Shown here: positions 31,022-58,625 of the stretch, one piece after another
Layout: the number at the start of each line of letters is the position of its first letter
Numbering within the stretch: the stretch's first letter is position 1
Origin: an uncultured Granulosicoccaceae bacterium
GTDB lineage: Bacteria; Pseudomonadota; Gammaproteobacteria; CALCKW01
Direction: 5' to 3'
DNA length: 64,000 nucleotides
NCBI GenBank assembly: GCA_937965695.1
Contig: CALCKW010000059.1
Span: 351 to 64,350, forward strand
Program-made: the position numbers and the translations under genes
Notes under the pieces: model-generated
Told to the model about the DNA's origin: nothing
Seen by the model: the letters and a program-made list of their open reading frames with translations, nothing else
Databases searched by the model: none

Positions 31022-31075
31022 TTGTTCTCCATTCTCGCGGCCCTAAAAATGGCGCGCGCCAAGTTATTTTTTAAT

Positions 31076-38262: not shown

Positions 38263-38356
38263 TTGTAAGAAGTATCGTTTTTTATCCGGACAACAGGTGT
38301 TGTCCAAGAACCGACGGGCAGGACTATGCCCGCATAATGACTCACTTAGGAGAGTA

Positions 38357-39607: not shown

Positions 39608-39619
39608 GGCTTAGCCCGA

Positions 39620-39648
39620 GATGGGTCGCTCTGACCCATCTTTTTTAA
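39620..39648 (+). terminator. Rho-independent terminator after the sugar SBP gene
   Basis: The sequence GATGGGTCgctctGACCCATC is followed by TTTTTTAA. Confidence 0.5.
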
Positions 39649-39649
39649 C

Positions 39650-40633: not shown

Positions 40634-40634
40634 C

Positions 40635-42763: not shown

Positions 42764-42780
42764 TTGAATACAGTATACAA
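42764..42780. promoter_or_regulatory. 17-bp near-palindrome TTGAATAC-A-GTATACAA, a candidate GntR-type operator in the divergent promoter region of the DAO gene and the BMC operon
   Basis: I read this directly from the sequence. A nearly identical element, cTGTATAC-A-GTATACAA, lies at 55538..55554. Confidence 0.45.
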
Positions 42781-42853: not shown

Positions 42854-44149
42854 ATGAATCAGCTGGATCCCACACTGCCTGAGGGTATTCACACTGTCGC
42901 CATGGGCATTGGAGACGCCAACGGCATCATGCGTGGCAAACGGATTCCCGCCAGTCATTGGAAATCGATCTGTGACGGGGGATGCACTATGTCACTCGCG
43001 ACCTTCGCTATTGATATGACGTGTGATGTTTGGGACACGCCCTATGTCAATTTCGACAACGGTTATCCGGATATGCATATTTTTCCGATCTCTCAGCCCA
43101 AAGAATGCCCGTGGGAGCCAGGGGTGGCCGTGTGTATGGCACAGGCCGTTGGCACAGACCATAAACCTGTGCCAATAGATCCTCGAAATGCGCTTGTTCG
43201 ACAGGTAGAGCGCGCACGAGAGATGGGTTTTGAAGTGAGTGTGGGGACAGAGCTGGAGTTTTATTTGCTTGACCCAGAAACTAAGATGCCTAAAGACGCA
43301 GGCATTGGTGTCTACAGCTTGGTGCGGGCTGCTGAGCTTGAACATGTGCTCGGGCCGATTCGCAATGGCTTGGTCGAAGTGGGTATTCCTATAGAACAAT
43401 CCAATCCCGAGTATGCCGCTGGTCAGGTGGAAGTGAATATTCGCTTTGACGAGGCACTGTTAGCCGCCGATCGTGTCGTGATGTTTCGCAATCTGGTGAA
43501 AGAACTTTCAATGCATCACGGCTACTTGGCAACGTTCATGTCCAAGCCCTTTTTGGAAGAGTCGGGTAGTGGCTTTCACACCCATTACTCGCTGTGGCGA
43601 GACGGTAAAAATCAGTTCAGTGATGATGGCAAGTTTAACCAACTCGGTCGTCATTTTGTGGCGGGCTTGCAAAAAAGAATGGCGGAGATGGCGCTTGCTT
43701 CAGCGTCTAACCCCAATGCCTATCGCCGACGTCAGCCATATACTTTTTGCCCGACCAATACCAGTTGGGGCCCCGACAATCGCACGGTGGGTTTGCGCGT
43801 GATCGAAGGCTCTGAAAGTGCTGCTCGTATCGAAAAACGTGATGGATCTGCAGATTGCAATCCTTATTACTTGCTCGCTTGCGAGTTGGCGGCGGGCCTG
43901 GATGGTATCGAGGCTGGCGAGGAGCCGTCTGAAATGACCACGGGCAATGCCTATGAATCCGAGACTGAAGGTCTTATCCCCGCTGACATGGCCACTGCAA
44001 TAGCCTTGGCGAAAGAGTCAACGTTTATGCGTGACGTTATGGGTGAAAGCGGGCTTCAGATCATGATTCAACAAGCAGAGCGAGAACTCGAATTCATCGC
44101 GACACCAATATCACCGGTAGAGATTGAGCGCTACCTTGGAAACTTTTAA
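42854..44149 (+). CDS. Glutamine-synthetase-family ligase (gamma-glutamyl-amine synthetase; GmaS/PuuA/IpuC-like)
   Basis: The ORF is 431 aa with a GS catalytic-domain pattern (…EVNIRFDEAL…GSGFHTHYSLW…NPYY…). Its stop overlaps the start of the BMC vertex gene (TAATG). Confidence 0.75.
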   Translation: MNQLDPTLPEGIHTVAMGIGDANGIMRGKRIPASHWKSICDGGCTMSLATFAIDMTCDVWDTPYVNFDNGYPDMHIFPISQPKECPWEPGVAVCMAQAVGTDHKPVPIDPRNALVRQVERAREMGFEVSVGTELEFYLLDPETKMPKDAGIGVYSLVRAAELEHVLGPIRNGLVEVGIPIEQSNPEYAAGQVEVNIRFDEALLAADRVVMFRNLVKELSMHHGYLATFMSKPFLEESGSGFHTHYSLWRDGKNQFSDDGKFNQLGRHFVAGLQKRMAEMALASASNPNAYRRRQPYTFCPTNTSWGPDNRTVGLRVIEGSESAARIEKRDGSADCNPYYLLACELAAGLDGIEAGEEPSEMTTGNAYESETEGLIPADMATAIALAKESTFMRDVMGESGLQIMIQQAERELEFIATPISPVEIERYLGNF

Positions 44150-44442
44150 TGCGCTTGGCTAATGTCACAGGCACTGTCACAGCGACAGTCAAATCTCAGT
44201 CGCTAACTGGGTTGAAGTTTTTGCTGGTGGACTATACAGACGCCGGCGGCAAAGTTATCGATGCGGCACGTGTTGTTGCGGACGATGTTGGTGCCGGCGT
44301 AGGTGACCAAGTCATTGTCAGCGAAGGATCAGCCGCACGATTACCCAATGGCATGGCAGGCTTAGCGGTGGACGCGACGGTTTTGGCCATTGTGGACGAG
44401 GTTAAAACAAAGGCAAGAAGGGCGGCAGCCAAGTCCGGCTGA
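44149..44442 (+). CDS. Bacterial microcompartment vertex protein (BMC-P; EutN/CcmL/PduN family)
   Basis: The sequence MRLANVTGTVTATVKSQSLTGLKFLLVDY…VGAGVGDQVIVSEGSAARL… has the typical EutN/CcmL pattern. The ORF is 97 aa. Confidence 0.85.
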   Translation: MRLANVTGTVTATVKSQSLTGLKFLLVDYTDAGGKVIDAARVVADDVGAGVGDQVIVSEGSAARLPNGMAGLAVDATVLAIVDEVKTKARRAAAKSG

Positions 44443-44557: not shown

Positions 44558-44866
44558 ATGGCGACAAAACAAGCACCCGGGCAGTCAGCACTGGGCATGA
44601 TCGAGACACGGGGTTTGGTAGCAGCGGTTGAAGCGGCCGACGCAATGGTAAAAGCAGCTAACGTCACTATCGTAGGGCAAACCAAGGCTGGTGGTGGACT
44701 GATCACAATCCTAATCCGCGGCGAAGTCGGTGCTGTTAAAGCTGCAGCTGATGCTGGTGCCAATGCTGCAAATAAAGTGGGTGATGTTGTGGCCGTCCAC
44801 GTCATTCCGCGACCACACGATGAAGTCGAAGGAATTTTGAGCGCACTCGGCGGTGGCGGCGAGTAG
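44558..44866 (+). CDS. Bacterial microcompartment hexamer shell protein (BMC-H; PduA/EutM/CcmK family)
   Basis: The canonical Pfam00936 pattern is present: [58 protein letters not shown]…VHVIPRPH. The ORF is 102 aa. Confidence 0.9.
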
Positions 44867-45035: not shown

Positions 45036-46244
45036 ATGAGCGACGTGGACTTCGAGCGCTTCACCCAGTCTCTGGGTGTTCAAACGTCAGGAGCAAGCGC
45101 TGCTACTTCGGCGAAACGTTTTGAGCGCGCATGCGTATTGGGTGGAGACAGCGATGCCTGGTTGTTGGCGGCAATTTGTGTGGCCAATGACACTCCGGTG
45201 AAATTGTTTTCTGCCTACGCTGCTGAGCTTGACCCACTGCGCTCAGCCGGTGGTGTGACACTGCGAGGCGCTGGACCCATAGGAACTGTCGCACTAGATC
45301 AAAGTAAGTCTGCAAGCATTGAGACAACCACGGTGCTTGATTCAGCTGTCAATGACAGCGATATCATCTTTTTAACTGGGCCAGTGCACAAACTGCGCAC
45401 CTGGGCGATGGTGTTGGCAGGTCATCTGCGTGATGGTCAGGTCGTTGTCGTTTTGAATGCTCGTACATTTGGCGCTTTAGAGACTCGAAGTTTGTTGAGG
45501 CTAGGTGGTAGTACGGCAGATTGCACTATCGTCGAGTTGCAAGGTGCACCTTGGTGGTTAGCTGCTTCAGGCACCCAACTGCAACTTTCAAAACGGACGG
45601 CCCCATTGGCGGCCACGCTTCCAGCTCGGCGCGAGCATGTGCTTCAGGGTTTGCAGGCTTTGATTGGTAAAATACAACCATGTACCTCAACACTCTACAG
45701 CAGTTTTGGAGATTGCAGTGGTGTTGTGGAATTACCTGCATTGGTGCTAGGCGGTCCGTTCAATCCCAACGGGGGACCAGCTGTTCCGGATGGTGCAAAC
45801 GCACTGCCTGTACATCAGAATTTTCATAACCTATTTGGTGAAAGCCATCGGCTTGTAGCCTCGCAATTGCTCGACGAACGTCGTTTGGTGGCCTCCAAGT
45901 TTGGTGTGCGAGATCTACCAAATCTTGAGTTGGCATTGAGCGACTATGCAGGCGGGGTTGAAGCAGATGATTCACGCGCAATTCCCAACTTGCAGCAAAG
46001 CAGAGAGATGCTCCGCTGTGCAGTAATTGCGTCGCTATTGCCATTGCAAAGTGCTGCGCAGTTGGCGGGTGTTGCAGTTCCTGTAACGCAGGCGATGACG
46101 ACACTGGGTAGCAGTTTGCTCGACGCTGATTTAACGGCGGCTGGACGATGGCTCGAAAGTTTGGGTGTGGCCAGTACGAGTTTCGATGATTGCAAGCGAT
46201 CTTTAGCTGAACTAATAGACGGAGAATCTAGCGGTGGACGCTGA
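45036..46244 (+). CDS. Opine-dehydrogenase-like (octopine/nopaline DH family) protein with N-terminal amphipathic-helix-plus-linker extension
   Basis: It is collinear with Arthrobacter-type opine dehydrogenase. The matching pairs are DSDIIFLTGPVHKLRTWAMVLAGHLRDGQVVVVLNARTFGALETRSLL versus DADVILIVVPAIHHASIAANIASYISEGQLIILNPGATGGALEFRKIL, and LLDERRLVASKFGV versus VDAERIAIAKAFDL. The GxGxxG motif is replaced by GGDSDAW. The first ~30 aa (VDFERFTQSL plus a GASAATSA linker) are extra. This assignment is by recalled homology and is not searched. Confidence 0.5.
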   Translation: MSDVDFERFTQSLGVQTSGASAATSAKRFERACVLGGDSDAWLLAAICVANDTPVKLFSAYAAELDPLRSAGGVTLRGAGPIGTVALDQSKSASIETTTVLDSAVNDSDIIFLTGPVHKLRTWAMVLAGHLRDGQVVVVLNARTFGALETRSLLRLGGSTADCTIVELQGAPWWLAASGTQLQLSKRTAPLAATLPARREHVLQGLQALIGKIQPCTSTLYSSFGDCSGVVELPALVLGGPFNPNGGPAVPDGANALPVHQNFHNLFGESHRLVASQLLDERRLVASKFGVRDLPNLELALSDYAGGVEADDSRAIPNLQQSREMLRCAVIASLLPLQSAAQLAGVAVPVTQAMTTLGSSLLDADLTAAGRWLESLGVASTSFDDCKRSLAELIDGESSGGR

Positions 46245-47613
46245 TTTAAGATCAATACAAGCAGCACGTGAGGCGGCCGATAAGGCTTTCACCGCATGGC
46301 AGACTTTTAAAAACACGGACCCAGCACAGATTGATGAAATAGTGCAGGCGATGGCGCGTGCCATTGAGCCTGAGGCCCTACGCTTGGCTGAGCTAGCGGT
46401 CGAAGAAACGGGTTACGGGAATGTGCCGGATAAACGCATAAAAAATCTGTTTAATTCTCTTTCAGTGGCTGAATGGCTGCGCGACATTAAGACGCTGGGC
46501 TTGTTGTGGCAGGATGAGCGAACCAAAATTGCCGCAATCGGTGAACCGATGGGTTTGGTGGCAGCGTTGATCCCGGTGACAAATCCCACATCGACCATTA
46601 TTTATAAGGTTTTGTCGGCTGTTAAGGCTGGCAACGCTATTGTTTGCGCGCCGCATCCACGTGGGGTCAAAAGCGGTGTTGCAACCGTAGAAATCATGGC
46701 GCGTGTTGCCGAGCAAATGGGTGCGCCTAAGGGACTCATTCAGTGTTTGGATCAAGTGACAAACCAAGGCACTGCTGAACTCATGAAACATCGACGTACG
46801 TCGGTGGTTATGGCTACCGGTGGACCGGCCATGGTGCAGGCCGCTTATTCATCTGGTAAGCCAACTCTGGCTGTTGGAGCAGGTAATGTGCCTTGTTATG
46901 TCCATGCCTCAAAAAAATCGGAACTAGCCGAGGTCGCTGAACAAATATTGACCTCTAAGAGCTTTGACTACGGCACCGCTTGTGTCTCGGAGCAGGCGAT
47001 TGTTGTCGATCGTGAAATTGCCGGGCAGTTGCGGCATGAGATGCGTATGCGTGGTGGTTATTTTTGCACCGCTTCCGAAGCTGAGCGTTTGGCAAAAGTG
47101 ATCTTTACGCCAAATAACAGCATGAACCCAAACAATGTAGGTCAATCACCTGAGAGTTTGGCTTCGCAGGCGGATATCCAAATTCCACCCAATTGCCGCG
47201 CTCTTATTGCCGATCAAAGTGAAATAGGCTGGCATGCTCCCTTGTCCGCAGAGAAATTAAACCCGGTGTTGGCTTGGTACGAAAGCAAAGACAGCGACGA
47301 GGGCATCGACATCTCTGAGCGGATCGCTAAGTTTGGCGGTTGGGGCCACAGTGCGGTGGTGCATTCAAATGATCCCGGCATTGTGAGTCAGTACAGCCGC
47401 CTGCCCGTTGGGCGTGTGCTGGCCAACACACCCGGTATTTTGGGTGGTATGGGATTCTCGACGGATCTAGAACCGAGTTTCATGCTGGGAACAGGCACCT
47501 CTTCTGGCTCCATTGTTTCTGACAATGTGACAGCCTTGCATTTGATTAATATAAAACGTGTCGCTTGGCAAAATAGGCCATGGCGAGACATCTATGATAT
47601 CTACGGAGAATAA
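46234..47613 (+). CDS. CoA-acylating aldehyde dehydrogenase (EutE/PduP-type metabolosome signature enzyme)
   Basis: The ORF is 459 aa in the ALDH superfamily. It has the BMC-AldDH-style N-terminal region (…FKNTDPAQIDEIVQAMARAIE…) and a catalytic Cys context (GTACVSEQ). It overlaps the upstream gene by 11 nt and sits between shell genes. Confidence 0.75.
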   Translation: MDADLRSIQAAREAADKAFTAWQTFKNTDPAQIDEIVQAMARAIEPEALRLAELAVEETGYGNVPDKRIKNLFNSLSVAEWLRDIKTLGLLWQDERTKIAAIGEPMGLVAALIPVTNPTSTIIYKVLSAVKAGNAIVCAPHPRGVKSGVATVEIMARVAEQMGAPKGLIQCLDQVTNQGTAELMKHRRTSVVMATGGPAMVQAAYSSGKPTLAVGAGNVPCYVHASKKSELAEVAEQILTSKSFDYGTACVSEQAIVVDREIAGQLRHEMRMRGGYFCTASEAERLAKVIFTPNNSMNPNNVGQSPESLASQADIQIPPNCRALIADQSEIGWHAPLSAEKLNPVLAWYESKDSDEGIDISERIAKFGGWGHSAVVHSNDPGIVSQYSRLPVGRVLANTPGILGGMGFSTDLEPSFMLGTGTSSGSIVSDNVTALHLINIKRVAWQNRPWRDIYDIYGE

Positions 47614-47615: not shown

Positions 47616-48242
47616 GTGGCGAGTAAAATTACTATACGAGCGTTGATGCAGATCGACCGCTTGCAGCCAAAATTTGCTGCCTACAACGGTGCAACGGTAC
47701 AAGGTTCTGTGCCGCTCGCGGGCGATACCGTGCTTATTGGTGAGTTTGCACCTGGGAATGGGGTGTTTACCTTAATTGATAAGGCGCTGAAAGCGAGCGC
47801 TGTTGAGGCTACTTCGCAGTTGGTCGAGCGCGAGTTTGGTTTTTTTATTCTTCGTTCTACGTCTAACGCGGAAGTGAGTGCGGCGAGAGATGCCATTCTC
47901 TCGGAGTTAGGCGCAAGCATGGAATCGCGTATCAAGCCTCAGCTTGAGTCTACTCAAATCATAACCTCCGTTGAGCCCTATCAAGCCCAATTGATTAATA
48001 AGTGGCGTAAAGGCGCATTGCTGGTTCCTGGCCAGACACTGGGTATTGTTGAGTGCTCGCCAGCGGCTTATATCTCTGTTGCGGCCAACGAAGCTGAAAA
48101 GGCAGCTCACATAGATATTGTAGAAGTGAGGGCGGTAGGACGTTTTGGTCGTTTGTTTATTTCTGGTGGTGAAGACGATGTGAAGACCGCCATCGCAGCC
48201 GCGAGCAAAGCCATTGAAGCAATGGATGGGCAGTCGGCCTAA
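47616..48242 (+). CDS. Tandem-BMC-domain shell protein (BMC-T, PduT-like)
   Basis: The ORF is 208 aa. The second half (TLGIVECSPAAYISVAANEAEKAAHIDIVEVRAVGRFGRLFISGGEDDVKTAIAAASKAIE) is a clear BMC domain. The first half is a more divergent BMC-like domain. Confidence 0.6.
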   Translation: MASKITIRALMQIDRLQPKFAAYNGATVQGSVPLAGDTVLIGEFAPGNGVFTLIDKALKASAVEATSQLVEREFGFFILRSTSNAEVSAARDAILSELGASMESRIKPQLESTQIITSVEPYQAQLINKWRKGALLVPGQTLGIVECSPAAYISVAANEAEKAAHIDIVEVRAVGRFGRLFISGGEDDVKTAIAAASKAIEAMDGQSA

Positions 48243-49423
48243 TGGCGGATTTGGTCAGCGATGCGGATGTCATTGCCGCTCATCGTCGAGGGCGGATGGT
48301 GATAGAAATCGTACCGGGAACGATTGTTACACAGCAAGCTCGTGATACTGCAGCGCGGCTGGGCGTCTCGCTACACGAGGGTTTGCTGGAGCGTCCTCAA
48401 GCGCCTCGCACTGATGGCAATGTGAGTTTGAGGCGTAACTTATGGCGTCGTAACCCTGGCTGGATTTCACCGCTAAATAAACCGACACCACGTGCACGCC
48501 GTATAAAAAAGTTAGCACTGATAGGTGCTGGCGGGGTAGGTGCCAATATTGCGCATTTGGTGTGCAATGCTCACTCAGCTGATCTAGTGTGCTTAATAGA
48601 TGTGGTGCCGGGCTTGGCAGAATCTGTCGCTTTGGACCTTGAGCATGCCACCGGTGTCAATCGATCTGCAACACGCGTCAGTGGTGGAGAATCGCTGCAA
48701 GCGGTTGCGGGTGCTGAAGTGGTTGTTGTTACAGCAGGGCGACCGCGTACACCGGGTATGGGTCGCAGTGATCTGCTGGATATTAACCGACGTGTTATCC
48801 GAACGGCAGCTCAGGCGATCAGTGAGCATGCACCAGAGGCGATTGTTATTGTTGTCACCAATCCCCTCGACGAGATGACCGTTGAAATGCTTCGCGCAAC
48901 AGGATTTCCGAGACAGCGAGTGCTTGGCATGGCCGGCACACTTGACAGCAGCCGGTTCCGCCGTGCACTAGCAAAAGAAGCGGGTGTTGCGGTGGCTGAT
49001 GTAGAAGCCATAACACTCGGCAGCCATGGCGATGAAATGACGCCAATCACTTCTCGCGCCCGTATTCGCGGTCGTACGTTAGAGACTGTGTTGTCGCAAG
49101 AGCAAATAGACGCCTGCGCAAAAGATGCCGTCACCGGTGGAGGGCAGGTAGTAGCACTGCGCAAGACGGGTTCAGCGACTGTTGCGCCTGCACACTCAAC
49201 CGTAGAACTCATTGACCACATCCGAGGTGCACTGAATGGCGCTGTGCCAGTCTCGGTAATGCTAGAAGGCGAATACGGAATAACTGGCGTAGTTCTAGGG
49301 GTCCCTTGCTTGATTGGTGCTAGCGGTGTGTTGGAGGTAGAAGAGCTGGCCTTAAATGAATCTGAAAGTCAGATGCTTCACGCGGCGGCGCAAGCGATTA
49401 CAGAGCGATTGAACGATGCCTGA
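48242..49423 (+). CDS. Lactate/malate dehydrogenase-family NAD-dependent 2-hydroxyacid dehydrogenase with ~90-aa N-terminal extension
   Basis: The LDH/MDH core begins at about aa 95: LALIGAGGVGANIAHL, VVVTAGRPRTPGMGRSDLL and GSHGDEMTPI (catalytic His). The preceding 90 aa (MADLVSDADVIAAHRRGRMVIEIVPGTIVTQQARDTAARLGVSL…) are not part of the LDH fold. The start overlaps the BMC-T stop (TAATG). Confidence 0.75.
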   Translation: MADLVSDADVIAAHRRGRMVIEIVPGTIVTQQARDTAARLGVSLHEGLLERPQAPRTDGNVSLRRNLWRRNPGWISPLNKPTPRARRIKKLALIGAGGVGANIAHLVCNAHSADLVCLIDVVPGLAESVALDLEHATGVNRSATRVSGGESLQAVAGAEVVVVTAGRPRTPGMGRSDLLDINRRVIRTAAQAISEHAPEAIVIVVTNPLDEMTVEMLRATGFPRQRVLGMAGTLDSSRFRRALAKEAGVAVADVEAITLGSHGDEMTPITSRARIRGRTLETVLSQEQIDACAKDAVTGGGQVVALRKTGSATVAPAHSTVELIDHIRGALNGAVPVSVMLEGEYGITGVVLGVPCLIGASGVLEVEELALNESESQMLHAAAQAITERLNDA

Positions 49424-49832
49424 TCCTGTTTTGTTGAAAGCGGCAGGCGGTGGTCGATTTGAAAAAATTGGCGCCTACGCGCGAGCGCGTCGCGTGGGCC
49501 CTTTTGTGTATGTGGCAGGCACGACTGCGATAGCGTCAAACGGGCTACTGCACGCACCCGGTGACACTTACGCACAAACGCTTTTTATCTTTGAACGCAT
49601 AGAGCAAGCATTGGCCGATGTACAAGCTGAGATGCGACATGTGGTCCGCACCCGAGCATTTTTTAGCGAAATCGCCAACGGTGGCGATTTCGTTCGTGCG
49701 CATGGTGAGGTTTTTACGGGTATCGAACCCGTCACCAGTGGCGTCGCCGCTGGATTGACAACCCCGGGCATGATGATTGAAATCGAAGTGGATGCTTTAG
49801 TCCACGACACCCAAGGAAATATACAGTGGTGA
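49416..49832 (+). CDS. RidA/YjgF/TdcF-family reactive enamine/imine deaminase
   Basis: The ORF is 138 aa with a RidA family pattern (…FVYVAGTTA… …TRAFFSEI… …GIEPVTSGV… …IEIEVDALV). It overlaps both neighbours. Confidence 0.75.
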   Translation: MPDPVLLKAAGGGRFEKIGAYARARRVGPFVYVAGTTAIASNGLLHAPGDTYAQTLFIFERIEQALADVQAEMRHVVRTRAFFSEIANGGDFVRAHGEVFTGIEPVTSGVAAGLTTPGMMIEIEVDALVHDTQGNIQW

Positions 49833-51706
49833 GCGGCGTTCATAACACCCCATCTGGCGGATGGGCCTCATGGTTCGATCTGCGCAGCCGCGAGTCCCTG
49901 TTGTCTGCGTTTCTACTTTTTGCGATCGTGTGTGTTTTGCTGGCGGCAGCCGCCTACTTTGAACTCGCTAGTCCTCGCTTACTCAAGATTGGCTGCGTCA
50001 ACTTAATCGCTGCATTAGCGCTGGGTCTTTTCAGCGGTTCAACGGGTGTTCTATCTCTCGGACATGTCGCGTTTTTTGGTATTGGCGCCTACGTTAGCGC
50101 GTGGTTCACTTTAATTCCCGCAATCAAAGGCATGCTCTTGCCTGACATGCCAGTTTTTATTCAGCAATCGCAGTGGAGTCTCTGGTTCGCCGTTATTCCA
50201 GCCATCATCGCTGGTCTATTGGCCGGTGTTTTGACTGGTTTCGTGATGCGGCGCTTGCGTGATACTTCCGCCGTTATCGCGAGTTTTGGTTTTTTAGTCA
50301 TTTTTTACCTTTTGTTTATAGGGTTGAAAATTTTTACGAATGGAAAACAATCCCTTTATGCCTTACCCATCGACCAATTGAGTTGGCCGTTAACCATGAC
50401 AGCGATCGCAACGGCTCTGCTTGTCACATTTGCCATACGCGCCAGTGCATTGGGAAGGGCGGCGGAGTCCTTGCGAGATAATGAAGCAGCTGCTCGTTCT
50501 GTTGGCGTAGACGCTGACCGTACCTTCTTTTGGGTGTGGGTCGCCAGTGCTGCACTGATGGCTATGGCTGGCGCCTTGTTTGCGCACTCCATTGGCATCG
50601 CGTCTCCTAGCAGTTTCTATTTAGATAAAACATTCGCTCTTATTGTGATGATAATCGTTGGGGGTTATCGGTCATTGACGGGTTGCGCTCTGGGTGCGGT
50701 GTTAATAACAATCGTTGAAGAATTACTAAAGCACGCAGAAGAATCTTTGGGTGCCCTTGCAGGCCAACAAGTACTGGGCGGTCTTATTGAAATGCCCCGT
50801 GTTTTTGGCCTAACGGCCTTGTGCTTCTCAGCGATTATTTTGTTGGTGTTGTATTTACGCCCAGAGGGCGTGATTGGCTATCGCGAATTGGCGCAAGCAG
50901 GTCTTATAAGACGACTGTTTGGGCGATGGCTCGAACCTGCCAGCAAGGGTGAAGAACAAGTCATCTACTCTGTGCCCAAGGAGTCGGAACTGTCCGCGCA
51001 GTCTTTGGGTAAAAATTATGGCTATTTTAGCGCCATGAGTGACGTGAGCTTTGAAGTAGGACCAGGGGAAATTGTTGGACTGATCGGGCCTAATGGTGCA
51101 GGTAAGAGCACCTTTATCAATGTAATGACCGGGAACCTTTTTGCGAGCTCTGGCGCTATTTTCCTAAACGGAGAAAATGCGACTCAGTGGAGTGCGCATG
51201 ACTTGGCGCGTCGTGGCATGGGCCGTACTTTTCAAAATATTCGGTTATTTGCCTCGCTTAGCACGTTGGACAATGTGCTGACGTCTGTCAACGTTGCCTC
51301 TCCCAAACTATCTCGTGTTGATGCTGAAGTGCTGGCGATGAATTGGCTACGCGAGCTTAATCTAGATCAGCACGCCCTGGAAGCAGGAGGCTCACTAGCC
51401 TATGGCGATCAGAGACGATTAGAAATAGCCCGTGCTTTGGCTTTGGAACCGCATTTCTTGCTGTTAGACGAACCCGCAGCGGGCATGAACGATTCCGAGA
51501 CCCATCAGTTGCAGCAATTGCTTAAAGATATCGTTCAGCGAATAGGTTGCGGTGTCATTTTGATCGAGCACGATATGCCAATGGTCATGGCGCTCTGCGA
51601 CCGACTGGTTGTGCTCAATAAGGGAGAGCAAATTGCCTCTGGCCCAGTGGCCGATGTGCGTAAAGATCCACAAGTTATAGAGGCTTACATCGGGGAATCA
51701 CCTTAA
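49826..51706 (+). CDS. Fused HAAT-family ABC transporter: LivM-like permease domain + LivG-like ATPase domain in one polypeptide
   Basis: The N-terminal ~370 aa are polytopic. The C-terminal ~250 aa carry Walker A ([10 protein letters not shown]), the signature (YGDQRRLEIARALA) and Walker B (LLLDEPAAGM). A GTG start overlaps the RidA stop. Confidence 0.75.
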   Translation: MVSGVHNTPSGGWASWFDLRSRESLLSAFLLFAIVCVLLAAAAYFELASPRLLKIGCVNLIAALALGLFSGSTGVLSLGHVAFFGIGAYVSAWFTLIPAIKGMLLPDMPVFIQQSQWSLWFAVIPAIIAGLLAGVLTGFVMRRLRDTSAVIASFGFLVIFYLLFIGLKIFTNGKQSLYALPIDQLSWPLTMTAIATALLVTFAIRASALGRAAESLRDNEAAARSVGVDADRTFFWVWVASAALMAMAGALFAHSIGIASPSSFYLDKTFALIVMIIVGGYRSLTGCALGAVLITIVEELLKHAEESLGALAGQQVLGGLIEMPRVFGLTALCFSAIILLVLYLRPEGVIGYRELAQAGLIRRLFGRWLEPASKGEEQVIYSVPKESELSAQSLGKNYGYFSAMSDVSFEVGPGEIVGLIGPNGAGKSTFINVMTGNLFASSGAIFLNGENATQWSAHDLARRGMGRTFQNIRLFASLSTLDNVLTSVNVASPKLSRVDAEVLAMNWLRELNLDQHALEAGGSLAYGDQRRLEIARALALEPHFLLLDEPAAGMNDSETHQLQQLLKDIVQRIGCGVILIEHDMPMVMALCDRLVVLNKGEQIASGPVADVRKDPQVIEAYIGESP

Positions 51707-51807
51707 CAGTGGGTTTCTCGTGTTCGGGTAATCTTTTAAATTATTCGAACTAAGTTAGAGCGTTACTTTTTTGCAGTTAATGTAATAAACACCTCGAAGC
51801 AACAGGA

Positions 51808-52989
51808 GTGAGAACGATGATCAAAAACCTACTAGCAGCAGCCGTGGTCGCCAGTGTTGGCATGACCACAGCACACGCAGATGGTCACGCAAAAGATTTC
51901 GTGATTGGCGCTGTCAACGCAAAAACAGGCTTCATGGCCGCATATGACGCACCTTTTATGCAGGGCGTGCAGATGTATATGGACGGTGCCAATGCTGATG
52001 GCGGCTTTATGGGTAAATACCCCATCAAGTTGATCGAACGCGATGATGGCTCAGACGTGCAAAAGTCTACGGTATCTACAGCCGAGTTGCTGCAGTCCGA
52101 AGAGCTGAATCTATTCATTACCTCTGCACTGGCTCCGTATGCCATTTCCGCAGGCAGCCAGGCATTGGCCAAAGACTTGTTAACTGTCCACACCATTGCA
52201 TCACAGCCCACGATTCCGGCGCGTTTGGGTGAAGGCAGTTACTTGGTCATGATGTCCGATGCCCATATGGGCGGTGTTTATGCCAAGTACGCTACTGACA
52301 CGCTCGAGGCTAAAACTGCTTATATCGTGACGAGTGACTTTGACCCCTACACTGAGTTTCTCCCATTGTATTTTAAAGAGAAATTTGAAGCAGCTGGCGG
52401 TAAAGTCATCGGTCAATCTGACTTTGCCTACGATCAGCAAGAGTTCTCATCAGTCGTCTCTGCGATCAAAGCGCTACCCGAACAACCCGATGTCATTATG
52501 GGAATGCCGTTCGATAACGATTTCCCTATCTTTATTAACCAGCTTCGTGCTGCTGGGGTGAAGTCGGTCTACCTGGGTCCAGACACCCTCGATTTGCCTT
52601 CTGTTAAAGGGTTAGGTGATGTCGTTGAAGGGGTGCATTACGTGACCATGGCTGCTCCTTCTAGCAGCGAGGCCGCGGGTGACTTTGTCAAGGCATATGG
52701 CGAGCGGTATGGCAGCGAAGACAGTGCGTATCCAGCGATGGTGGGTTATTCGTTCATGCGTATGGTTGAAGCGGCAGTCAATGCGGCGGGTGGCACGGAT
52801 GCAGCGGCAGTTCGTGCAGCATTTGCTCAGCTAGAAAATGTCGAAACTGAAATTGGTTCCGTCACTTTTAAAGGCTTTGGTGCGTTACCTAATCTTCCGG
52901 TGCATGTGATGCGCATAGAAGGCGGTAAAGGTGTTCATGTCGAGTCTATTTTGTTAGAGGCAGACGAAATACCAACACCACGTTCTTGA
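51808..52989 (+). CDS. HAAT-family periplasmic substrate-binding protein (LivK/UrtA/FmdD-like)
   Basis: A signal peptide (MIKNLLAAAVVASVGMTTAHA) and a PBP1 HAAT-type profile are present. The ORF is about 390 aa. Confidence 0.7.
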   Translation: MRTMIKNLLAAAVVASVGMTTAHADGHAKDFVIGAVNAKTGFMAAYDAPFMQGVQMYMDGANADGGFMGKYPIKLIERDDGSDVQKSTVSTAELLQSEELNLFITSALAPYAISAGSQALAKDLLTVHTIASQPTIPARLGEGSYLVMMSDAHMGGVYAKYATDTLEAKTAYIVTSDFDPYTEFLPLYFKEKFEAAGGKVIGQSDFAYDQQEFSSVVSAIKALPEQPDVIMGMPFDNDFPIFINQLRAAGVKSVYLGPDTLDLPSVKGLGDVVEGVHYVTMAAPSSSEAAGDFVKAYGERYGSEDSAYPAMVGYSFMRMVEAAVNAAGGTDAAAVRAAFAQLENVETEIGSVTFKGFGALPNLPVHVMRIEGGKGVHVESILLEADEIPTPRS

Positions 52990-53078
52990 GGGCGTGATTA
53001 GCGATGGTGTCGGGAATAGGGCCTGGCACCATTGGCTATCCATGCAAGCATGTTTGATAAATTGACAGAGCTTCGATT

Positions 53079-53795
53079 GTGAAAAAAGCAGTGTTAGAGG
53101 TCGAAAATCTGGTTGTTCAATACGGCCAAATTTCTGCGGTGCAAGGGGTCAACCTAACCGTCAATGAAAATGAGTTGGTCACCGTTATCGGGGCTAATGG
53201 TGCCGGGAAGACTTCTACTTTAAATGCCATGATGGGGTTAGTTCCTGCGGCTAGCGGAGAAATTCGCTACAAGGGTGAATCCCTTTTGCACATGCCGGTT
53301 GAAAAGCGCCCAAGTATGGGTATTGCATTTTCACCTGAGGGACGAAGAGTCTTTGGGCCTTTGTCTGTGCGCGACAATTTGCGGGTCGGTGGGAATAGCC
53401 TGCCGGCCTCTCAGGTTGACGGTCGCATTGACGAAATGGTTGAGCGATTTCCTATTTTGGGAGAGCGCCTACAGCAAGCAGCGGGGACGCTTTCTGGTGG
53501 AGAACAGCAGATGTTAGCCATTGCGCGTGCGCTGATGATTTCCCCCGATTTTTTAATTCTCGATGAACCCTCGTTGGGGTTGGCTCCTATTGTCGTCGCA
53601 CAAGTGTTTGAGTTGATCGCTGAGCTTCATGCGGAAGGTGTGGCAATACTATTGGTTGAACAAAACGTTAGAAAAAGCTTGGCTATTGCTGATCGAGCTT
53701 ACGTTATGGAACTGGGACGCTTTGTGCGTGAAGGTGCAGCCGATGAATTGGCTGCAGACCCATCCATAGAAAATAGCTATCTCGGCGCGGCTTAA
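53079..53795 (+). CDS. HAAT-family ABC ATPase (LivF-like)
   Basis: Walker A (GANGAGKTST), the LSGGEQQMLAIARAL signature and Walker B (LILDEPSLGL) are present. A GTG start is likely. Confidence 0.8.
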   Translation: MKKAVLEVENLVVQYGQISAVQGVNLTVNENELVTVIGANGAGKTSTLNAMMGLVPAASGEIRYKGESLLHMPVEKRPSMGIAFSPEGRRVFGPLSVRDNLRVGGNSLPASQVDGRIDEMVERFPILGERLQQAAGTLSGGEQQMLAIARALMISPDFLILDEPSLGLAPIVVAQVFELIAELHAEGVAILLVEQNVRKSLAIADRAYVMELGRFVREGAADELAADPSIENSYLGAA

Positions 53796-53833
53796 AGGCC
53801 GCCTGAATAATTTAGGTTTCTTGGGAGATAGAC

Positions 53834-54721
53834 TTGGACCTCTTTTTACAATTTCTAGTCTCAGTGCTGAGTCTTGGCGGCGTGTATGCGCTACTAGCTT
53901 TGGGGCTGTCTACCGTTTTTGGATTGTTGGGATTTCTCAACTTTGCACACGGTGATCTGATGACAATCTGTGGCTATGGCTTGTACTTTATGCTGGCTGC
54001 GGGATTTGGTTTTGTTCCTGCGGCTACGCTCGCTCTCGCGCTGGCTGCATTGGCAGCAGTTTTAATGGAGCGCTTGGCATTTCGACCGTTGCGTGGTCGC
54101 AACCCGATGACGCTGCTTATTACTTCTTTTGCCCTGTCGTTGGCCTTACATGTTAGCTTTCAGATTTTTATAAGCCCAAAACCTAAGCCCATTCCCGTAC
54201 CAGAGTTTTTGTCAGGTTATTTTACTATTGGTGAAATTTTTATAAGCCGCGCGCAAGTAATCGCTATTGTCGTCTCTGTGTTGTCATTAGTGCTGCTTAA
54301 TCTTTTCGTCAATCGCACGCGCCTCGGCGTAGCACTGCGTGCCGCTGCGGCAGATTTTGATGTAGCGAGAGCTTTTGGCGTAAAGGCTAATCAAGTTATT
54401 GCAATCGCTTTCGCGTTGAGTGGCTTGCTCGCGGGATTGGCAGCATTGGTGTGGATATCACAGCGAGGTGCAGTGTTTCCCACCATGGGATTGACCCCAA
54501 TGGTGAAGGCGCTGATAGCCGTCATTATCGGAGGGCTGTCGAATCCGCGCGGCGCGCTCTTGGGTGGTTTTATGTTGGGCTTATTGGAAGCGGGCTTTCT
54601 ATTTACTCTTCCAGATAGCCTTGTGTTGTACCGGGACGCCTTGGTGTTGCTGGTGTTGATTCTGTTTTTGATGTTTAGGCCTAACGGATTGATTGCGACC
54701 AATCCAGAGCCGATGCGGTAG
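53834..54721 (+). CDS. HAAT-family ABC permease (LivH-like)
   Basis: It is a polytopic protein of 295 aa. Confidence 0.75.
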   Translation: MDLFLQFLVSVLSLGGVYALLALGLSTVFGLLGFLNFAHGDLMTICGYGLYFMLAAGFGFVPAATLALALAALAAVLMERLAFRPLRGRNPMTLLITSFALSLALHVSFQIFISPKPKPIPVPEFLSGYFTIGEIFISRAQVIAIVVSVLSLVLLNLFVNRTRLGVALRAAAADFDVARAFGVKANQVIAIAFALSGLLAGLAALVWISQRGAVFPTMGLTPMVKALIAVIIGGLSNPRGALLGGFMLGLLEAGFLFTLPDSLVLYRDALVLLVLILFLMFRPNGLIATNPEPMR

Positions 54722-54743: not shown

Positions 54744-55409
54744 TTAGCTGTTTAGGATGGCATCCATTTGCAAAGTAAGACCGCCTTCGATGTGATCACG
54801 CATTGCTTCGAAAGCATCGTGACCGTTACCGCTAGCCATCGCATCGATGAGCGGTATGTGATCGCCTAGGGATTTGTCCAGATCAACGTCGTCAATTTTG
54901 GCGAACATACGAAATGAATTGCTGCGGTTCCAGATGGAATCAAACTGTTCTAGCAGAAAACGATTATTAGCTTTTTCAACAATCGCGCGGTGGATGGTGC
55001 GGTTAGCTTCAAAGTAGGCGGAGATGTCGACGCGCTTTATGGACTCTTGCTGCAGCACTAAATTGCGCAGTTGCTCATAGACTGCTTTGTCGTTCCGCTC
55101 GGTGACTAGGCGTGCAGCGAAGCCTTCAATGGCGATTCTCGCCTGATAGATTTCGCGCACTTCAGCGTTGCTGATTTGCCTGATAACAAATCCTGAACGA
55201 CCGGAGGTCTCTAGTACGCCTTCTTGTTCTAGGCGAAGCAACGCCTCGCGTACTGGGGTTCGGCTGACTTGTAACTCGTTTGCAAGCCGCTCTTGCACAA
55301 GGCGCTCGTTGGGAGCGATATCACCGGCGCCTATTGCTATAAGCAATTGCTCGTAGATCTCGTCTGCAAGGCGGGTTTTCTGTACAGAGATGCGTTTGAG
55401 TGTAGCCAT
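54744..55409 (-). CDS. GntR-family transcriptional regulator (FadR/FCD-type C-terminal domain)
   Basis: An N-terminal wHTH (…ERLANELQVSRTPVREALLRLEQEGVL) is followed by a C-terminal all-helical effector domain with His residues. It is divergent from the mgsA-like gene. Confidence 0.8.
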   Translation of the reverse strand: MATLKRISVQKTRLADEIYEQLLIAIGAGDIAPNERLVQERLANELQVSRTPVREALLRLEQEGVLETSGRSGFVIRQISNAEVREIYQARIAIEGFAARLVTERNDKAVYEQLRNLVLQQESIKRVDISAYFEANRTIHRAIVEKANNRFLLEQFDSIWNRSNSFRMFAKIDDVDLDKSLGDHIPLIDAMASGNGHDAFEAMRDHIEGGLTLQMDAILNS

Positions 55410-55537
55410 ATAGAGGTGAGAGTGTTCCTGACAATGGAGCGTGAAATTTAGCTGAACGAGCCGCCTGAGCGGCTTTTAGAGCCAAAAACTGGGTGTTTAA
55501 AAAAACATCATAGCAATGATTGATTGATTCAGGAATA

Positions 55538-55554
55538 CTGTATACAGTATACAA
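55538..55554. promoter_or_regulatory. 17-bp palindrome cTGTATAC-A-GTATACAA, a candidate GntR-type operator between the GntR gene and the mgsA-like gene
   Basis: I read this directly from the sequence. It shares 16/17 positions with the site at 42764..42780, and the 13-mer ATACAGTATACAA is identical in both. Confidence 0.45.
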
Positions 55555-55576: not shown

Positions 55577-56521
55577 ATGTGTGGGATAGCTGGGAGAATT
55601 TTAAATAGCCCTGGCCGTGTCGGTGATGACTTAGTCGATCTGATGGCGGCCCAGTCTCACCGGGGGGCCGACTCGACAGGTTTTGCTGTATACGGGCCGC
55701 CAAGAACCGATGGTTATATCGTTCGCGCGATGGGTTTTGATCGAAGTGCAATGGACTCGGATCTGGCAGACTTTGAGAAGATCTTGCGTCAACACGGCTC
55801 AGACTGGTTGGAAGAGCCAACGTGGAACGGTGGCACTGATAGCCATTACTCAGTACGTGCTGTTATTAAAGACCCTTCAGACATCGCGCAGTGGATAAAA
55901 GAAGCCGATGCTATATGTGAACGTCTCGAGGTGCAATCGCTCGGTCGCTCACTGGAGATTGTCAAGGACACGGGTGATGCGAATGCCGTTGCGGAAAAAC
56001 ATGGTGTTCGTGAAATGGTGGGCACTCATGGATTAGGTCATGCACGTTTGGCCACTGAAAGCTCGGTACTGCCTAATGCCAGCCACCCTTTTTGGGCGCG
56101 ACCGTTCCCCGATGTAGCCATTGTGCACAACGGACAGATTACTGACTACTACACGCAGCGCGATCGCCTAGAGCGCAAGGGTTATCGATTTATGACCCAG
56201 AACGACAGTGAGTTGATTGCCGTATGGGTCTCCGACCAGATGTCGCAGGGGCTCGATAAACACGAAGCGCTGCGCAAGTCGATCGATTCTATTGATGGGG
56301 TATTTACCTTCCTCATTACTGACCCAACCAGCATGGGGTTCGCCAAAGATCGTTTTGCCATGAAACCGCTTGTGACGGTGGAATCTGTAGGTCAATTGTC
56401 CGCTGCAACGGAAGAGCAAGCCGTTCGACGTATCGAGCCTGAAGAATCAGATGTGATCAACTACGACGGTCCTTCAATGACTCGTCTATGGCCGGTTGAT
56501 TCGACGGAGGCTGCAGCATGA
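55577..56521 (+). CDS. Class-II (Ntn) glutamine amidotransferase domain protein (GltB1 / N-methylglutamate-synthase subunit A-like)
   Basis: The start is called at the ATG preceded by GAGGGG, giving MCGIAGRIL… with the nucleophilic Cys at position 2 after Met removal. The ORF is about 314 aa. Confidence 0.7.
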   Translation: MCGIAGRILNSPGRVGDDLVDLMAAQSHRGADSTGFAVYGPPRTDGYIVRAMGFDRSAMDSDLADFEKILRQHGSDWLEEPTWNGGTDSHYSVRAVIKDPSDIAQWIKEADAICERLEVQSLGRSLEIVKDTGDANAVAEKHGVREMVGTHGLGHARLATESSVLPNASHPFWARPFPDVAIVHNGQITDYYTQRDRLERKGYRFMTQNDSELIAVWVSDQMSQGLDKHEALRKSIDSIDGVFTFLITDPTSMGFAKDRFAMKPLVTVESVGQLSAATEEQAVRRIEPEESDVINYDGPSMTRLWPVDSTEAAA

Positions 56522-57210
56522 GCGAAGTTGAAGTCAAAGTAGGCGAGCGGTCTATTCGTGAGATCAACGAAGAAATCCAGGAGCACGCCGCAAACGGTTT
56601 GCCGATGCACATTACCGATACACTCTCTAGACATAACTTAGGTATTGGTTTGCCAAAAGGGGCAAAGTTGCGCTTTGATGGCAGCGTTGGTTATTACTGC
56701 GGTGGTTTGAATAACGGCGCGACGATTACCGTGGAGCGTAATTCAGGCTGGGGCACTGGTGAAGCACAGGCAGCAGGGGATATCACCGTCGGCGGTTATG
56801 CGGGGATGTCTGTGGGTGCGGCGATGCTCGGCGGTGTAATCCATGTCAAAGGTGACTGCGGCCCTCGTTGCGGTGTGGCGATGAAAGGTGGCGATATTAT
56901 TGTCGAAGGCAAACTCGGTTATCAAGCTGGGTTTATGTCGCACGGCGGGCGCATAATAGCGCTCGGCGGTGCGGGTGAGTCTTGTGCTGATGCGCTTTGG
57001 GAAGGCGAGGTCTGGGTTGCCGGGCCGGTCGAGTCACTGGGTGTGGACGCCAAAATTGTCGAGCCTGAGGCAGCAGAAATTGCCTCGGTAGAAGAACTGC
57101 TAGCCACACGTGGTTTGGCAGACAACAACAGAGAGTGGCGCAAAATCGTATCCGGTCAGCGCCTGTGGTACTTCGAGAGTCGGGAAGCAAACGCATGGCT
57201 AATGATATGA
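56518..57210 (+). CDS. GXGXG-motif glutamate-synthase C-terminal-domain-like protein (GltB3 / MgsB-like)
   Basis: Repeated GxGxG beta-helix motifs are present (GGVIHVKGDCGPRCGVAMKGGDIIVEGKLGYQAGFMSHGGRIIALGGAGE). The ORF is 230 aa. It overlaps the previous gene by 4 nt. Confidence 0.7.
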   Translation: MSEVEVKVGERSIREINEEIQEHAANGLPMHITDTLSRHNLGIGLPKGAKLRFDGSVGYYCGGLNNGATITVERNSGWGTGEAQAAGDITVGGYAGMSVGAAMLGGVIHVKGDCGPRCGVAMKGGDIIVEGKLGYQAGFMSHGGRIIALGGAGESCADALWEGEVWVAGPVESLGVDAKIVEPEAAEIASVEELLATRGLADNNREWRKIVSGQRLWYFESREANAWLMI

Positions 57211-58625
57211 ATAATTCAGATGAAGAACGGTACAGTTACCCCTTTGAAATGCCTAGCGAAGAAGCGGTCGCGTTTAGTGACGGTGCTATAGATGGACGTC
57301 CTGCGGGTGTCCCATCATCATATGACAAGGGTGGTTCATTGCGTTGGACACCCGATGCCATTTCCGAAGTGCATGCCCTGGCACAGTTGGGCCGCTATCA
57401 GGTGCGCGGTTATAACTGTTTTAACCAGCGCTTGCCCACTTTTGACGATCTGACCTTTGTACCGGCGACGATGACGCGTTTGCCGCTTGAGGGTTACAGA
57501 GAAAAGTGTGACACCACAACAATTTTGGGTAACAGCGGCAACGTTGAAAACCCGCTGGAATTGAAAATCCCGATTTATATCGCCAGCATGAGTTTTGGTG
57601 CGCTGTCGGCAAGTGCCAAAGCTGCGCTTGGATACGGTGCGTCGAAAGTAGGCACAATGACCTGCACCGGCGAAGGCGGCATGCTCGAAGAAGAGCGCGC
57701 TGCCAGTGAGCGTTTGGTCTATCAAATGAGCCCAGCTCGCTACGGCTTGGATTTAGATCACTTGCGACGTGCAGATGGTCTTGAGCTGGTTGTAGGCCAA
57801 GGCGCTAAACCTGGCACGGGTGGCCTGCTACTCGGTATGAAGGTGTCAGAACGCGTTTCCAAAATGCGCACTTTGCCGCCAGGCGTAGATCAACGCTCGA
57901 CGATTCGTCACCCAGACTTTTTAGGTGCAGATGACTTGGCCGTGAAGATCGAGGAGCTGCGTATCGCGACTAACTACAAAGTGCCAATCAGCATCAAGAT
58001 GGGTGCAACGAGACCGCGTTATGATGTTGCCATTGCGGCTAAAGCAGGCGCTGATATCATTGTTGTAGATGGCGCAGAAGGAGGCACCGGTGCCTCTCCA
58101 GAAATGCTGCTCAACCACACGGGTATTCCCAATATCTCTGCAATTCGCGCAGCGCGCGAGGCGTTGGATGAATGCGGTATGTCGGGTAAGGTATCCTTGG
58201 TTGCAGCCGGTGGTATTCGCAGTGGTGTGGATGCGGCTAAATGCTTGGCGTTGGGTGCTGATGCCGTCATGATCGGCAATGCTTCAATGATAGCAATGGG
58301 TTGTAACTCGCCGCGATACGAAGAAGATTACGCCAAGTTAGGTACTTCACCAGGTGCCTGCCATCATTGTCATACAGGCTTGTGTCCTGTGGGTATCGCC
58401 ACACAAGATCCCGATCTAGAAGCACGCATGGACGTGGCTGTGGGTGCAGAACGTGTTGCACGCTACTTGACCGCCATGACCATGGAGATCACCGCACTTG
58501 CTAAAGCTTGTGGTAAATCTTCAGTTCACAACCTAGAGCCAGAAGATCTTCGAGCACTGAGCTTTGAAGCTTCAGCATTTACTGGTGTAAAAATGGCGGG
58601 TATCGATCGCGCTTTTGGTTGGTAA
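57207..58625 (+). CDS. FMN-binding glutamate-synthase-domain protein (GltB2 / MgsC-like)
   Basis: An ATGA start–stop overlap couples it to the previous gene. A TIM-barrel FMN domain pattern is present (…IYIASMSFGALS…GEGG…VVGQGAKPGTGG…IIVVDGAEGGTGASP…), and there is a Cys cluster (CHHCHTGLCPVGIATQDP) for an Fe-S centre. Confidence 0.7.
   Translation: MNNSDEERYSYPFEMPSEEAVAFSDGAIDGRPAGVPSSYDKGGSLRWTPDAISEVHALAQLGRYQVRGYNCFNQRLPTFDDLTFVPATMTRLPLEGYREKCDTTTILGNSGNVENPLELKIPIYIASMSFGALSASAKAALGYGASKVGTMTCTGEGGMLEEERAASERLVYQMSPARYGLDLDHLRRADGLELVVGQGAKPGTGGLLLGMKVSERVSKMRTLPPGVDQRSTIRHPDFLGADDLAVKIEELRIATNYKVPISIKMGATRPRYDVAIAAKAGADIIVVDGAEGGTGASPEMLLNHTGIPNISAIRAAREALDECGMSGKVSLVAAGGIRSGVDAAKCLALGADAVMIGNASMIAMGCNSPRYEEDYAKLGTSPGACHHCHTGLCPVGIATQDPDLEARMDVAVGAERVARYLTAMTMEITALAKACGKSSVHNLEPEDLRALSFEASAFTGVKMAGIDRAFGW

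Follow-up and report, generated by a model that had tools for sequence, protein, structure and literature searches.

A 64,000-nucleotide stretch of contig CALCKW010000059.1 (assembly GCA_937965695.1), from an uncultured Granulosicoccaceae bacterium, was analyzed at its full length and is called the window below. At 55577-58625 it carries three consecutive genes for a glutamate-synthase-like enzyme, referred to here as the triad:

55577..56521, plus strand: triad subunit A, an Ntn (class II) amidotransferase of 314 amino acids (aa) (Pfam GATase_6/7)
56518..57210, plus strand: triad subunit B, a GXGXG beta-helix protein of 230 aa (Pfam GXGXG, PF01493)
57207..58625, plus strand: triad subunit C, an FMN TIM-barrel glutamate-synthase domain protein of 472 aa (Pfam Glu_synthase, PF01645, 329 bits, E 6e-98)

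A previous reading of the letters alone (the sequence-only reading) had described a three-gene amidotransferase/GXGXG/FMN set with overlapping ends, and the open reading frames (ORFs), Pfam domains and sizes agree with it, as do the two ATGA start/stop overlaps, one at each of the A/B and B/C junctions. Subunit A starts with MCGIAG, its N-terminal Cys standing right behind the Met. Subunit C could also start from an in-frame ATG at 57195, the start chosen by one public gene call (476 aa). The sizes of 314/230/472 aa compare with 301/228/442 aa for GlxB, GlxC and GlxD of Rhizobium etli.

Upstream of the triad lies a bacterial microcompartment (BMC) locus, consisting of a shell operon, a divergent oxidase gene, a transporter and a regulator:

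41590..42729, minus strand: FAD oxidase of the monomeric sarcosine/N-methyltryptophan oxidase type (Pfam DAO), divergent from the shell operon
42854..44149, plus strand: glutamine-synthetase-like (GS-like) ligase, presumed gamma-glutamyl-amine synthetase (Pfam Gln-synt_C), gene 1 of the shell operon
44149..44442, plus strand: BMC-P pentamer shell protein (Pfam EutN_CcmL, E 5e-23)
44558..44866, plus strand: BMC-H hexamer shell protein (Pfam BMC, E 1e-27)
45036..46244, plus strand: opine-dehydrogenase-fold NAD(P) enzyme of 402 aa with an N-terminal helix and linker, candidate signature enzyme
46234..47613, plus strand: CoA-acylating aldehyde dehydrogenase (NCBIfam EutE-type, 492 bits)
47616..48242, plus strand: BMC-T tandem-domain shell protein, CcmP/CsoS1D-like (NCBIfam CcmP, 204 bits; Pfam CsoS1D_N and BMC)
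48242..49423, plus strand: malate/lactate dehydrogenase with an N-terminal extension of ~88 aa (Pfam Ldh_1_N and Ldh_1_C)
49416..49832, plus strand: RidA/L-PSP family protein of the imine/enamine hydrolase family (Pfam Ribonuc_L-PSP)
49826..54721, plus strand: Liv-type ABC transporter (Pfam BPD_transp_2, ABC_tran and Peripla_BP_6), made up of a LivM-LivG fusion (49826-51706), a binding protein (51808-52989), LivF (53079-53795) and LivH (53834-54721)
54744..55409, minus strand: GntR/FCD transcription regulator (Pfam GntR and FCD), divergent from the triad

The oxidase scores 187 bits on the NCBIfam MTOX model, under its cut-off of 257, and its best PDB match is the monomeric sarcosine oxidase (MSOX) 1ZOV with 114 bits, which bears out the earlier description of a single-subunit DAO-family oxidase. 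That the first gene of the BMC operon encodes a GS-like ligase is likewise correct, though the protein is not an orthologue of GmaS: it is 29-32% identical to GlnT/GmaS, falls under the cut-offs of the GlnA, GlnT/GSIII and PuuA models (184 bits on the PuuA model), and among PDB entries matches 5DM3 with 208 bits against 123-128 bits for GmaS. The best PDB match of the aldehyde dehydrogenase is the acetylating acetaldehyde dehydrogenase 5J78 (423 bits), a match that is not diagnostic of substrate. The malate dehydrogenase (MDH)-like enzyme exceeds the cut-off of the NCBIfam MDH model PRK06223 (317 bits against 283) and has the MDH-type Arg in AGRPRTPGMGRSDL. The binding protein of the transporter has weak PDB relatives, at most 58 bits, all of the Leu/Ile/Val type; its LivM-type permease and LivG-type ATPase form one 626-aa fusion, most relatives having a different, unfused Liv-type set. 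The best model for the regulator, the phosphonate-associated PhnR, is matched with a score far under its cut-off.

The shell locus is of the MIC2 type and as such already catalogued; that type comprises 22 loci, and its function is not known (Sutter et al. 2021, PMC8217296, Supplementary Data 2). The enzymes listed for MIC2 are an aldehyde dehydrogenase, a lactate/malate dehydrogenase extended at its N-terminus, a member of the 6PGDH-like superfamily that may have a short encapsulation peptide, and a pfam00120 glutamine synthetase (PMC8217296). When the window was compared with the published description, all features compared were found, including this enzyme set and the lack of PTAC. Ruegeria sp. 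ANG-R is a listed MIC2 member (PMC8217296), and its locus (L028) holds all genes of the window locus at 46-87% identity, and both the shell operon and the triad keep their internal gene order there. The published text and its table of hidden Markov models (HMMs) are silent on the triad, the GntR regulator, the MSOX-like oxidase, RidA and the transporter; the account has no Glu_synthase, GXGXG or Octopine_DH entry, and the 6PGDH-like protein was not recognized there as having an opine-dehydrogenase fold (PMC8217296). A full-text search, with subscription-only papers outside its reach, returned no link of mgsABC/glxBCD or of opine dehydrogenases to microcompartments, and no function for MIC2.

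Homologues of subunit C number in the thousands; the top 120 are 82-92% identical to it, and the nearest named ones come from Granulosicoccaceae. Subunit C is 53-55% identical to MgsC/GlxD, 39% to a haloarchaeal homologue and ~32% to GltB, and it scores 155 bits on the NCBIfam GltB equivalog, which has a cut-off of 1047. Against the R. etli proteins in particular, the identities are 54% (C to GlxD), 33% (B to GlxC) and 32% (A to GlxB). A neighbor-joining tree of 90 subunit C sequences places the window and each of its 78 genome relatives in a single clade that is sister to the canonical GlxD/MgsC; GltB served as the outgroup, and the haloarchaeal homologue and other FMN-domain proteins lie far from the window clade. 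When 120 sequences of the window group were compared with 120 of the canonical group (Rhizobium, Methylobacterium and Hyphomicrobium), the mean identity was 86.8% inside the former, 89.5% inside the latter and 52.9% across the two. Because of this tree and of the identities within and between groups, the triad is assigned, at the level of sequence, to the MgsABC-type enzymes and not to the bona fide glutamate synthases, yet to an orthologous group of its own. Clustering with bona fide glutamate synthases, which the sequence-only reading had itself named as fatal, is thus not what the subunit C tree gives. The same reading had called the triad typical of N-methylglutamate synthase; the three-subunit, MgsABC-like architecture stands, and the word typical does not, since the triad lies in a sister clade outside the canonical one, with subunits A and B just 32-33% identical to their counterparts, and has a different Cys signature. 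Among plasmids no MIC2-type triad was found, all 293 matches having less than 60% identity and being of canonical or other types.

What a canonical methylamine cluster looks like can be seen on R. etli plasmid pRetIE4803a (soxBDAG-2, glxA, an XRE regulator, glxBCD, glnT and purU) and, similarly, in Methylobacterium bullatum (soxBDA, glxBCD and glnT); the canonical pathway logic is visible in both. The corresponding N-methylglutamate pathway genes of M. extorquens are gmaS-mgsABC-mgdABCD (PMC6237917). The window could in principle carry such a standard methylamine pathway, with mgdABCD elsewhere in the genome and the microcompartment neighborhood incidental. The triad has the three-domain architecture and the sizes of mgsABC, the automatic JGI name of some close homologues (P0037, P0051 and P0115) is 'methylamine-glutamate N-methyltransferase subunit C', and a FolD-like gene, assigned by eye, precedes the regulator gene in three Paracoccaceae loci (L010, L033 and L042), which continue with GntR, triad and class-I amidotransferase and lack both GS-like and shell genes within 10 kb. 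However, the clade of the triad is separate from the Rhizobium/Methylobacterium group, the ligase and subunits A and B are too distant from GlnT/GmaS, GlxB and GlxC, and synteny and a shared operator, described below, bind the triad to the shell operon across phyla. Searching the 64-kb window by tblastn (E<1e-3) gave no homologues of R. etli SoxB/D/A/G (= MgdABCD), and Pfam annotation found no mgdABCD-type genes among its other large ORFs, so the earlier statement that mgdABCD is missing from the window is correct. No SoxA/D/G homologues occur in 145 related loci, and in the window the triad is linked neither to a gmaS/glnT orthologue nor to mgdABCD. A standard methylamine pathway is therefore very unlikely and already largely refuted. 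Nor does anything in the analysis point to methylamine or formaldehyde, which the sequence-only reading had named as one case.

Subunit C of the window features the motif GC(366)N...x18...C(385)HHC(388)HTGLC(393)P. All four Cys residues are kept in 81/81 locus-derived sequences and in 119-120 of 120 database homologues of the window group; canonical MgsC has D/Y/W/D at these positions in 118-120 of 120 sequences. C366, C388 and C393 align with the C-x5-C-x4-C-P of Paracoccus jeotgali GltB, whose Cys residues we take to be the [3Fe-4S] ligands by analogy with the Azospirillum brasilense structure. Given a Cys pattern shared with GltB and absent from canonical MgsC, the window triad probably binds an iron-sulfur (Fe-S) cluster that canonical N-methylglutamate synthases have lost. 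A tblastn search with a GltD fragment found no GltD-like partner in the window or in 156 related loci, and the Pfam annotation of the window holds no GltD-like or ferredoxin-domain electron donor. On another Pseudomonadota contig (L081, 4111-11269) a GS-like gene is followed by two full triads in tandem; their subunits C are 45% and 66% identical to that of the window and both have a CxxCxxxxC motif, which points to additional subfamilies.

The Cys signature is also an argument for the main rival, according to which the triad would be a genuine split glutamate synthase of the ferredoxin type, regenerating the glutamate pool or re-assimilating ammonia beside a Puu-like route, in which gamma-glutamylation would be followed by oxidation of the conjugate by the DAO-family oxidase, oxidation of the aldehyde and hydrolysis by a class-I amidotransferase. 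Three of the Cys residues match GltB, the fourth is invariant, and canonical MgsC has lost all of them. A class-I glutamine-amidotransferase-like gene (~231 aa, PF00117) stands directly behind the triad in 21 genome loci (for example L004, L009, L010, L016, L028 and L041), and the DAO-family oxidase and a GS-like ligase with some score on the PuuA model are at hand. But subunit C is far closer to MgsC/GlxD than to GltB and falls well short of the GltB equivalog; none of the 157 sequences has a GltD-like or ferredoxin partner; a shared catabolic operator would be surprising for a housekeeping function; and the opine-dehydrogenase-fold cargo would be left without a role. We regard this alternative as unlikely, though it is the one to be taken most seriously. 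Beside the class-I amidotransferase, 11 loci have a Cys-rich protein of 111-134 aa that matches no family and has no homologue in the window.

The conservation of the gene neighborhood was followed in 80 genome loci collected via subunit C, of which 49 have at least 20 kb of sequence, with 10 kb as the distance inspected. Shell and cargo genes lie within that distance of the triad in 37/80; the 49 well-flanked loci divide into 29 with shell and cargo, 7 with a GS-like ligase and no shell, and 13 with neither. Triad-shell adjacency occurs in Rhodobacterales, Hyphomicrobiales, Granulosicoccaceae, Arenicellales, Acidimicrobiia, Thermoleophilia and Gaiellales, that is, in alpha- and gammaproteobacteria and in actinobacteria (two phyla), and it takes three forms. 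In Rhodobacterales and Hyphomicrobiales a minus-strand GntR gene and the triad are followed, after a gap, by a minus-strand oxidase gene and the genes from the GS-like ligase through RidA. In Granulosicoccaceae the genes from the GS-like ligase through RidA come first, then the minus-strand GntR gene and the triad; the window has the same order with an inserted transporter. In Thermoleophilia and Gaiellales, with subunits C 64-66% identical to that of the window, GntR, triad, GS-like, shell and cargo genes all run in one direction. Among the 37 BMC-linked loci, the GntR/FCD gene adjoins the triad in 32, RidA is present in 30 and the oxidase in 29. Conversely, when metagenome loci were anchored on the opine-dehydrogenase-like gene, 19 of the 22 with ~10 kb of upstream sequence contained the triad, and a Liv-type transporter stood behind RidA in most loci of this set. 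Adjacency by chance or by close kinship alone was considered and rejected on account of the three gene orders, the two phyla, the agreement of both search directions and the shared operator. Identity to the window differs strongly between the parts of the locus: subunit C is 80-81% identical in Acidimicrobiia and 85-91% in Proteobacteria, the opine-dehydrogenase-like cargo of the same loci 39-50%, which indicates that constraint differs greatly between them and that the locus has probably moved laterally.

Three loci without a shell (L034, L045 and L036) combine the triad, the GS-like ligase and RidA with a DAO-family, pipecolate-oxidase-like oxidase and an acyl-CoA ligase, the latter assigned to PRK12583 (856 bits), a generic fatty-acid-CoA ligase family; L034 and L045 additionally have an NAD-dependent aldehyde dehydrogenase. 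Such a gene set fits a soluble counterpart of aldehyde release and CoA-ester formation, and it supports the idea that the triad and the ligase are a front end delivering a common intermediate.

Two operator-like sites, one at each promoter region, connect the triad to the shell operon:

42764..42780, no strand: operator-like site 1, GAATACAGTATACAA, in the divergent intergenic region between the oxidase and GS-like genes
55535..55554, no strand: operator-like site 2, a perfect 16-bp palindrome ATACTGTATACAGTAT overlapping ATACAGTATACAA, 23 nt before the triad ATG

Just two exact copies of the 13-mer ATACAGTATACAA are present in the 64 kb, at 42768-42780 and 55542-55554, and none of 100 shuffled controls reached the observed count of near matches. 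Of 74 loci, 56 have a GTATAC-core palindrome with the same flanks at most 200 nt before the first triad gene; ahead of the GS-like gene it is found in 30 of 39. The T-GT-N2-AC-A core of this palindrome fits the general GntR/FadR operator pattern, which makes the GntR/FCD protein encoded next to the triad the probable regulator of triad and shell operon alike. The shared operator and the two-way synteny together support a functional affiliation of the triad with the microcompartment locus.

The 402-aa cargo protein has no accepted Pfam match (PF02317 at E 0.037). Many of its homologues do carry PF02317 and are named opine or octopine/nopaline dehydrogenase at their source, and a profile of 38 family members matches CENDH (1BG6) at E 1.7e-23. 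The AlphaFold2 model (pLDDT 92) has the two-domain fold of opine dehydrogenases, a Rossmann domain followed by a 6PGDH-like helical one, and Foldseek ranks 1BG6 first and then octopine, pseudopaline, yersinopine and staphylopine dehydrogenases. These findings sustain the earlier identification of an opine-dehydrogenase-like BMC cargo. Residues 3-17 are predicted to form a conserved amphipathic helix (consensus FEEFAEA), which is followed by a disordered linker, so that the N-terminus resembles an encapsulation peptide. In the GGGxDA dinucleotide-binding motif, residue 38, the third Gly in 35 of 38 members, is Asp in the window protein and its closest relative (79% identical), a lineage-specific change.

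Another alternative starts from the import of an N-substituted, opine-like amino acid, which would be cut first by the oxidase and/or the opine-dehydrogenase-like enzyme; the GS-like ligase and the triad would then process the freed amine or amino acid, or the triad would oxidize an N-substituted glutamate and pass the electrons to its Fe-S site. The Liv-type transporter of the amino-acid family, the presence of two types of C-N-cleaving enzyme in one regulon and the retained Fe-S ligands would all suit this scheme. It leaves unexplained, however, why the GS-like ligase and the triad are linked in shell-less loci that have no opine-dehydrogenase-like gene, no electron acceptor is encoded nearby, and it is more complicated than our preferred explanation with no extra support; we consider it improbable.

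We propose instead a regulon for amine catabolism in which the triad serves as front end and the MIC2 microcompartment as back end, a proposal for which we see the case as evenly balanced. The Liv-type ABC system would import an amino compound, which the GS-like ligase would convert with ATP to its gamma-glutamyl amide. The triad would treat this amide as glutamate synthase treats glutamine: subunit A would hydrolyze it and hand the amine to the FMN subunit, which would join the amine to 2-oxoglutarate or 2-iminoglutarate with reduction, giving an N-substituted L-glutamate. As the Fe-S site is kept, unlike in canonical N-methylglutamate synthase, the triad may exchange electrons with a partner. 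The N-substituted glutamate would be cut oxidatively to glutamate and an aldehyde, by the opine-dehydrogenase-fold cargo inside the shell and/or by the MSOX-like oxidase with RidA aiding imine hydrolysis. The acylating aldehyde dehydrogenase would turn the aldehyde into an acyl-CoA, and the encapsulated MDH-like enzyme would reoxidize the NADH. The GntR/FCD protein, as a repressor acting on ATACTGTATACAGTAT at both promoters, would co-control triad and organelle. In this form, the variant N-alkylglutamate pathway of the sequence-only reading is retained in part: gene content, synteny and the shell-less set leading from amine through aldehyde to acyl-CoA speak for it, and its 'typical' MgsABC and its GmaS have to be given up.

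Several observations weigh against this proposal. Two different enzymes are both candidates for the C-N cleavage. Classical opine dehydrogenases cut on the oxo-acid side, and such a cleavage would reverse the triad reaction; the catalytic His202 of CENDH pairs with Glu232 of the cargo, invariant in 38/38 members (in an HMM alignment of moderate reliability there). The alkyl-side cleavage required would resemble that of saccharopine dehydrogenase, a chemical analogy to an enzyme of another fold family. The Liv-type binding protein hints at an amino-acid-like substrate rather than a simple amine. The four conserved Cys residues hint that an electron partner is needed, but none of the conserved neighboring genes encodes a GltD-like protein or a ferredoxin. 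The class-I amidotransferase common beside the triads of relatives has no homologue anywhere in the window. The 13/49 well-flanked loci with a triad and no GS-like or shell genes within 10 kb suggest that the triad may stand alone or act in trans. Finally, the analysis establishes gene content, conservation and the shared operator, whereas the substrate and chemistry of the route are inferred.

A more far-reaching version, which we think rather less probable than the proposal itself, would make MIC2 the first microcompartment for a glutamate-carried amine. The triad, as an Fe-S/FMN 'N-substituted-glutamate synthase', would add a third branch to GOGAT and N-methylglutamate synthase and load the amine in the cytosol; the encapsulated opine-dehydrogenase-fold enzyme would represent a new class of signature enzyme that frees the aldehyde only inside the shell; and NAD+ would be regenerated through a malate/oxaloacetate couple, a task that usually falls to an alcohol dehydrogenase. 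MIC2 is one of about a dozen catalogued microcompartment types in which an aldehyde dehydrogenase is present and no aldehyde-generating enzyme is known. For MIC2, a cargo protein of unknown kind can now be recognized as an opine-dehydrogenase-fold enzyme, and the triad, the GS-like ligase, the sarcosine-oxidase-like enzyme, RidA and the transporter join the shell in one conserved regulon. Ruegeria, Sulfitobacter, Lentibacter and Hoeflea are among the cultured carriers in which this hypothesis is open to test. Triads of this type also constitute a widespread third branch of the glutamate-synthase-like triads, wrongly named N-methylglutamate synthase by automatic annotation. Their separate clade and context imply that metagenomic counts of the methylamine pathway may be inflated by this Fe-S-type clade, and estimates of methylamine use in marine metagenomes would be affected.

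The remaining large ORFs of the window are sugar, amino-acid and regulatory genes by Pfam. A galactoside-utilization cluster (29918-41486) abuts the oxidase gene and is unrelated to the triad and shell locus; it comprises an IclR regulator, a MalK-type ATPase, a GH36 melibiase, galactokinase, GalT, a GH42 beta-galactosidase and a sugar ABC transporter. Two neighboring paralogous YHYH-domain proteins are encoded at 5416-6447 and 6847-7884 on the minus strand.

Compared with known systems, the locus shares parts with several. The pathways for putrescine (Puu), isopropylamine (Ipu) and aniline (TdnQ/TdnT) likewise use a GS-like ligase, then a DAO-family oxidase and an aldehyde dehydrogenase, and their class-I amidotransferase-like hydrolase is also found in many relatives of the window locus; the window itself differs from PuuABCD, Ipu and TdnQ/TdnT in having no class-I amidotransferase. 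To our knowledge, none of these gamma-glutamylation pathways includes a GltB-like triad, an opine-dehydrogenase-fold enzyme or a shell. The cargo resembles CENDH (1BG6), octopine dehydrogenase (3C7A) and the staphylopine and pseudopaline dehydrogenases in its two-domain fold (TM 0.71/0.82 to 1BG6), in several invariant Arg residues and in the expected substrate, a secondary amine dicarboxylate, and differs from them by an identity of ~21% and by the added N-terminal encapsulation-type helix. With GltB/Fd-GOGAT and the split archaeal homologues the triad has the same three domains and matching Cys positions in common; in contrast to GltB/Fd-GOGAT it lacks the central domain and a GltD or ferredoxin partner, has an extra fourth Cys (CxxCxxxxCP) and stands in a catabolic context. 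The closest parallel is MgsABC/GlxBCD, which likewise consists of three separate subunits of similar size in the same order, works with a GS-like ligase partner and provides the nearest FMN relative. The window departs from it in its GntR/FCD regulator, as against the XRE/GlxA annotated in the canonical cluster of R. etli, in a ligase that is not GmaS, and in having, in place of MgdABCD, an MSOX-like oxidase, an opine-dehydrogenase-fold enzyme and a microcompartment.

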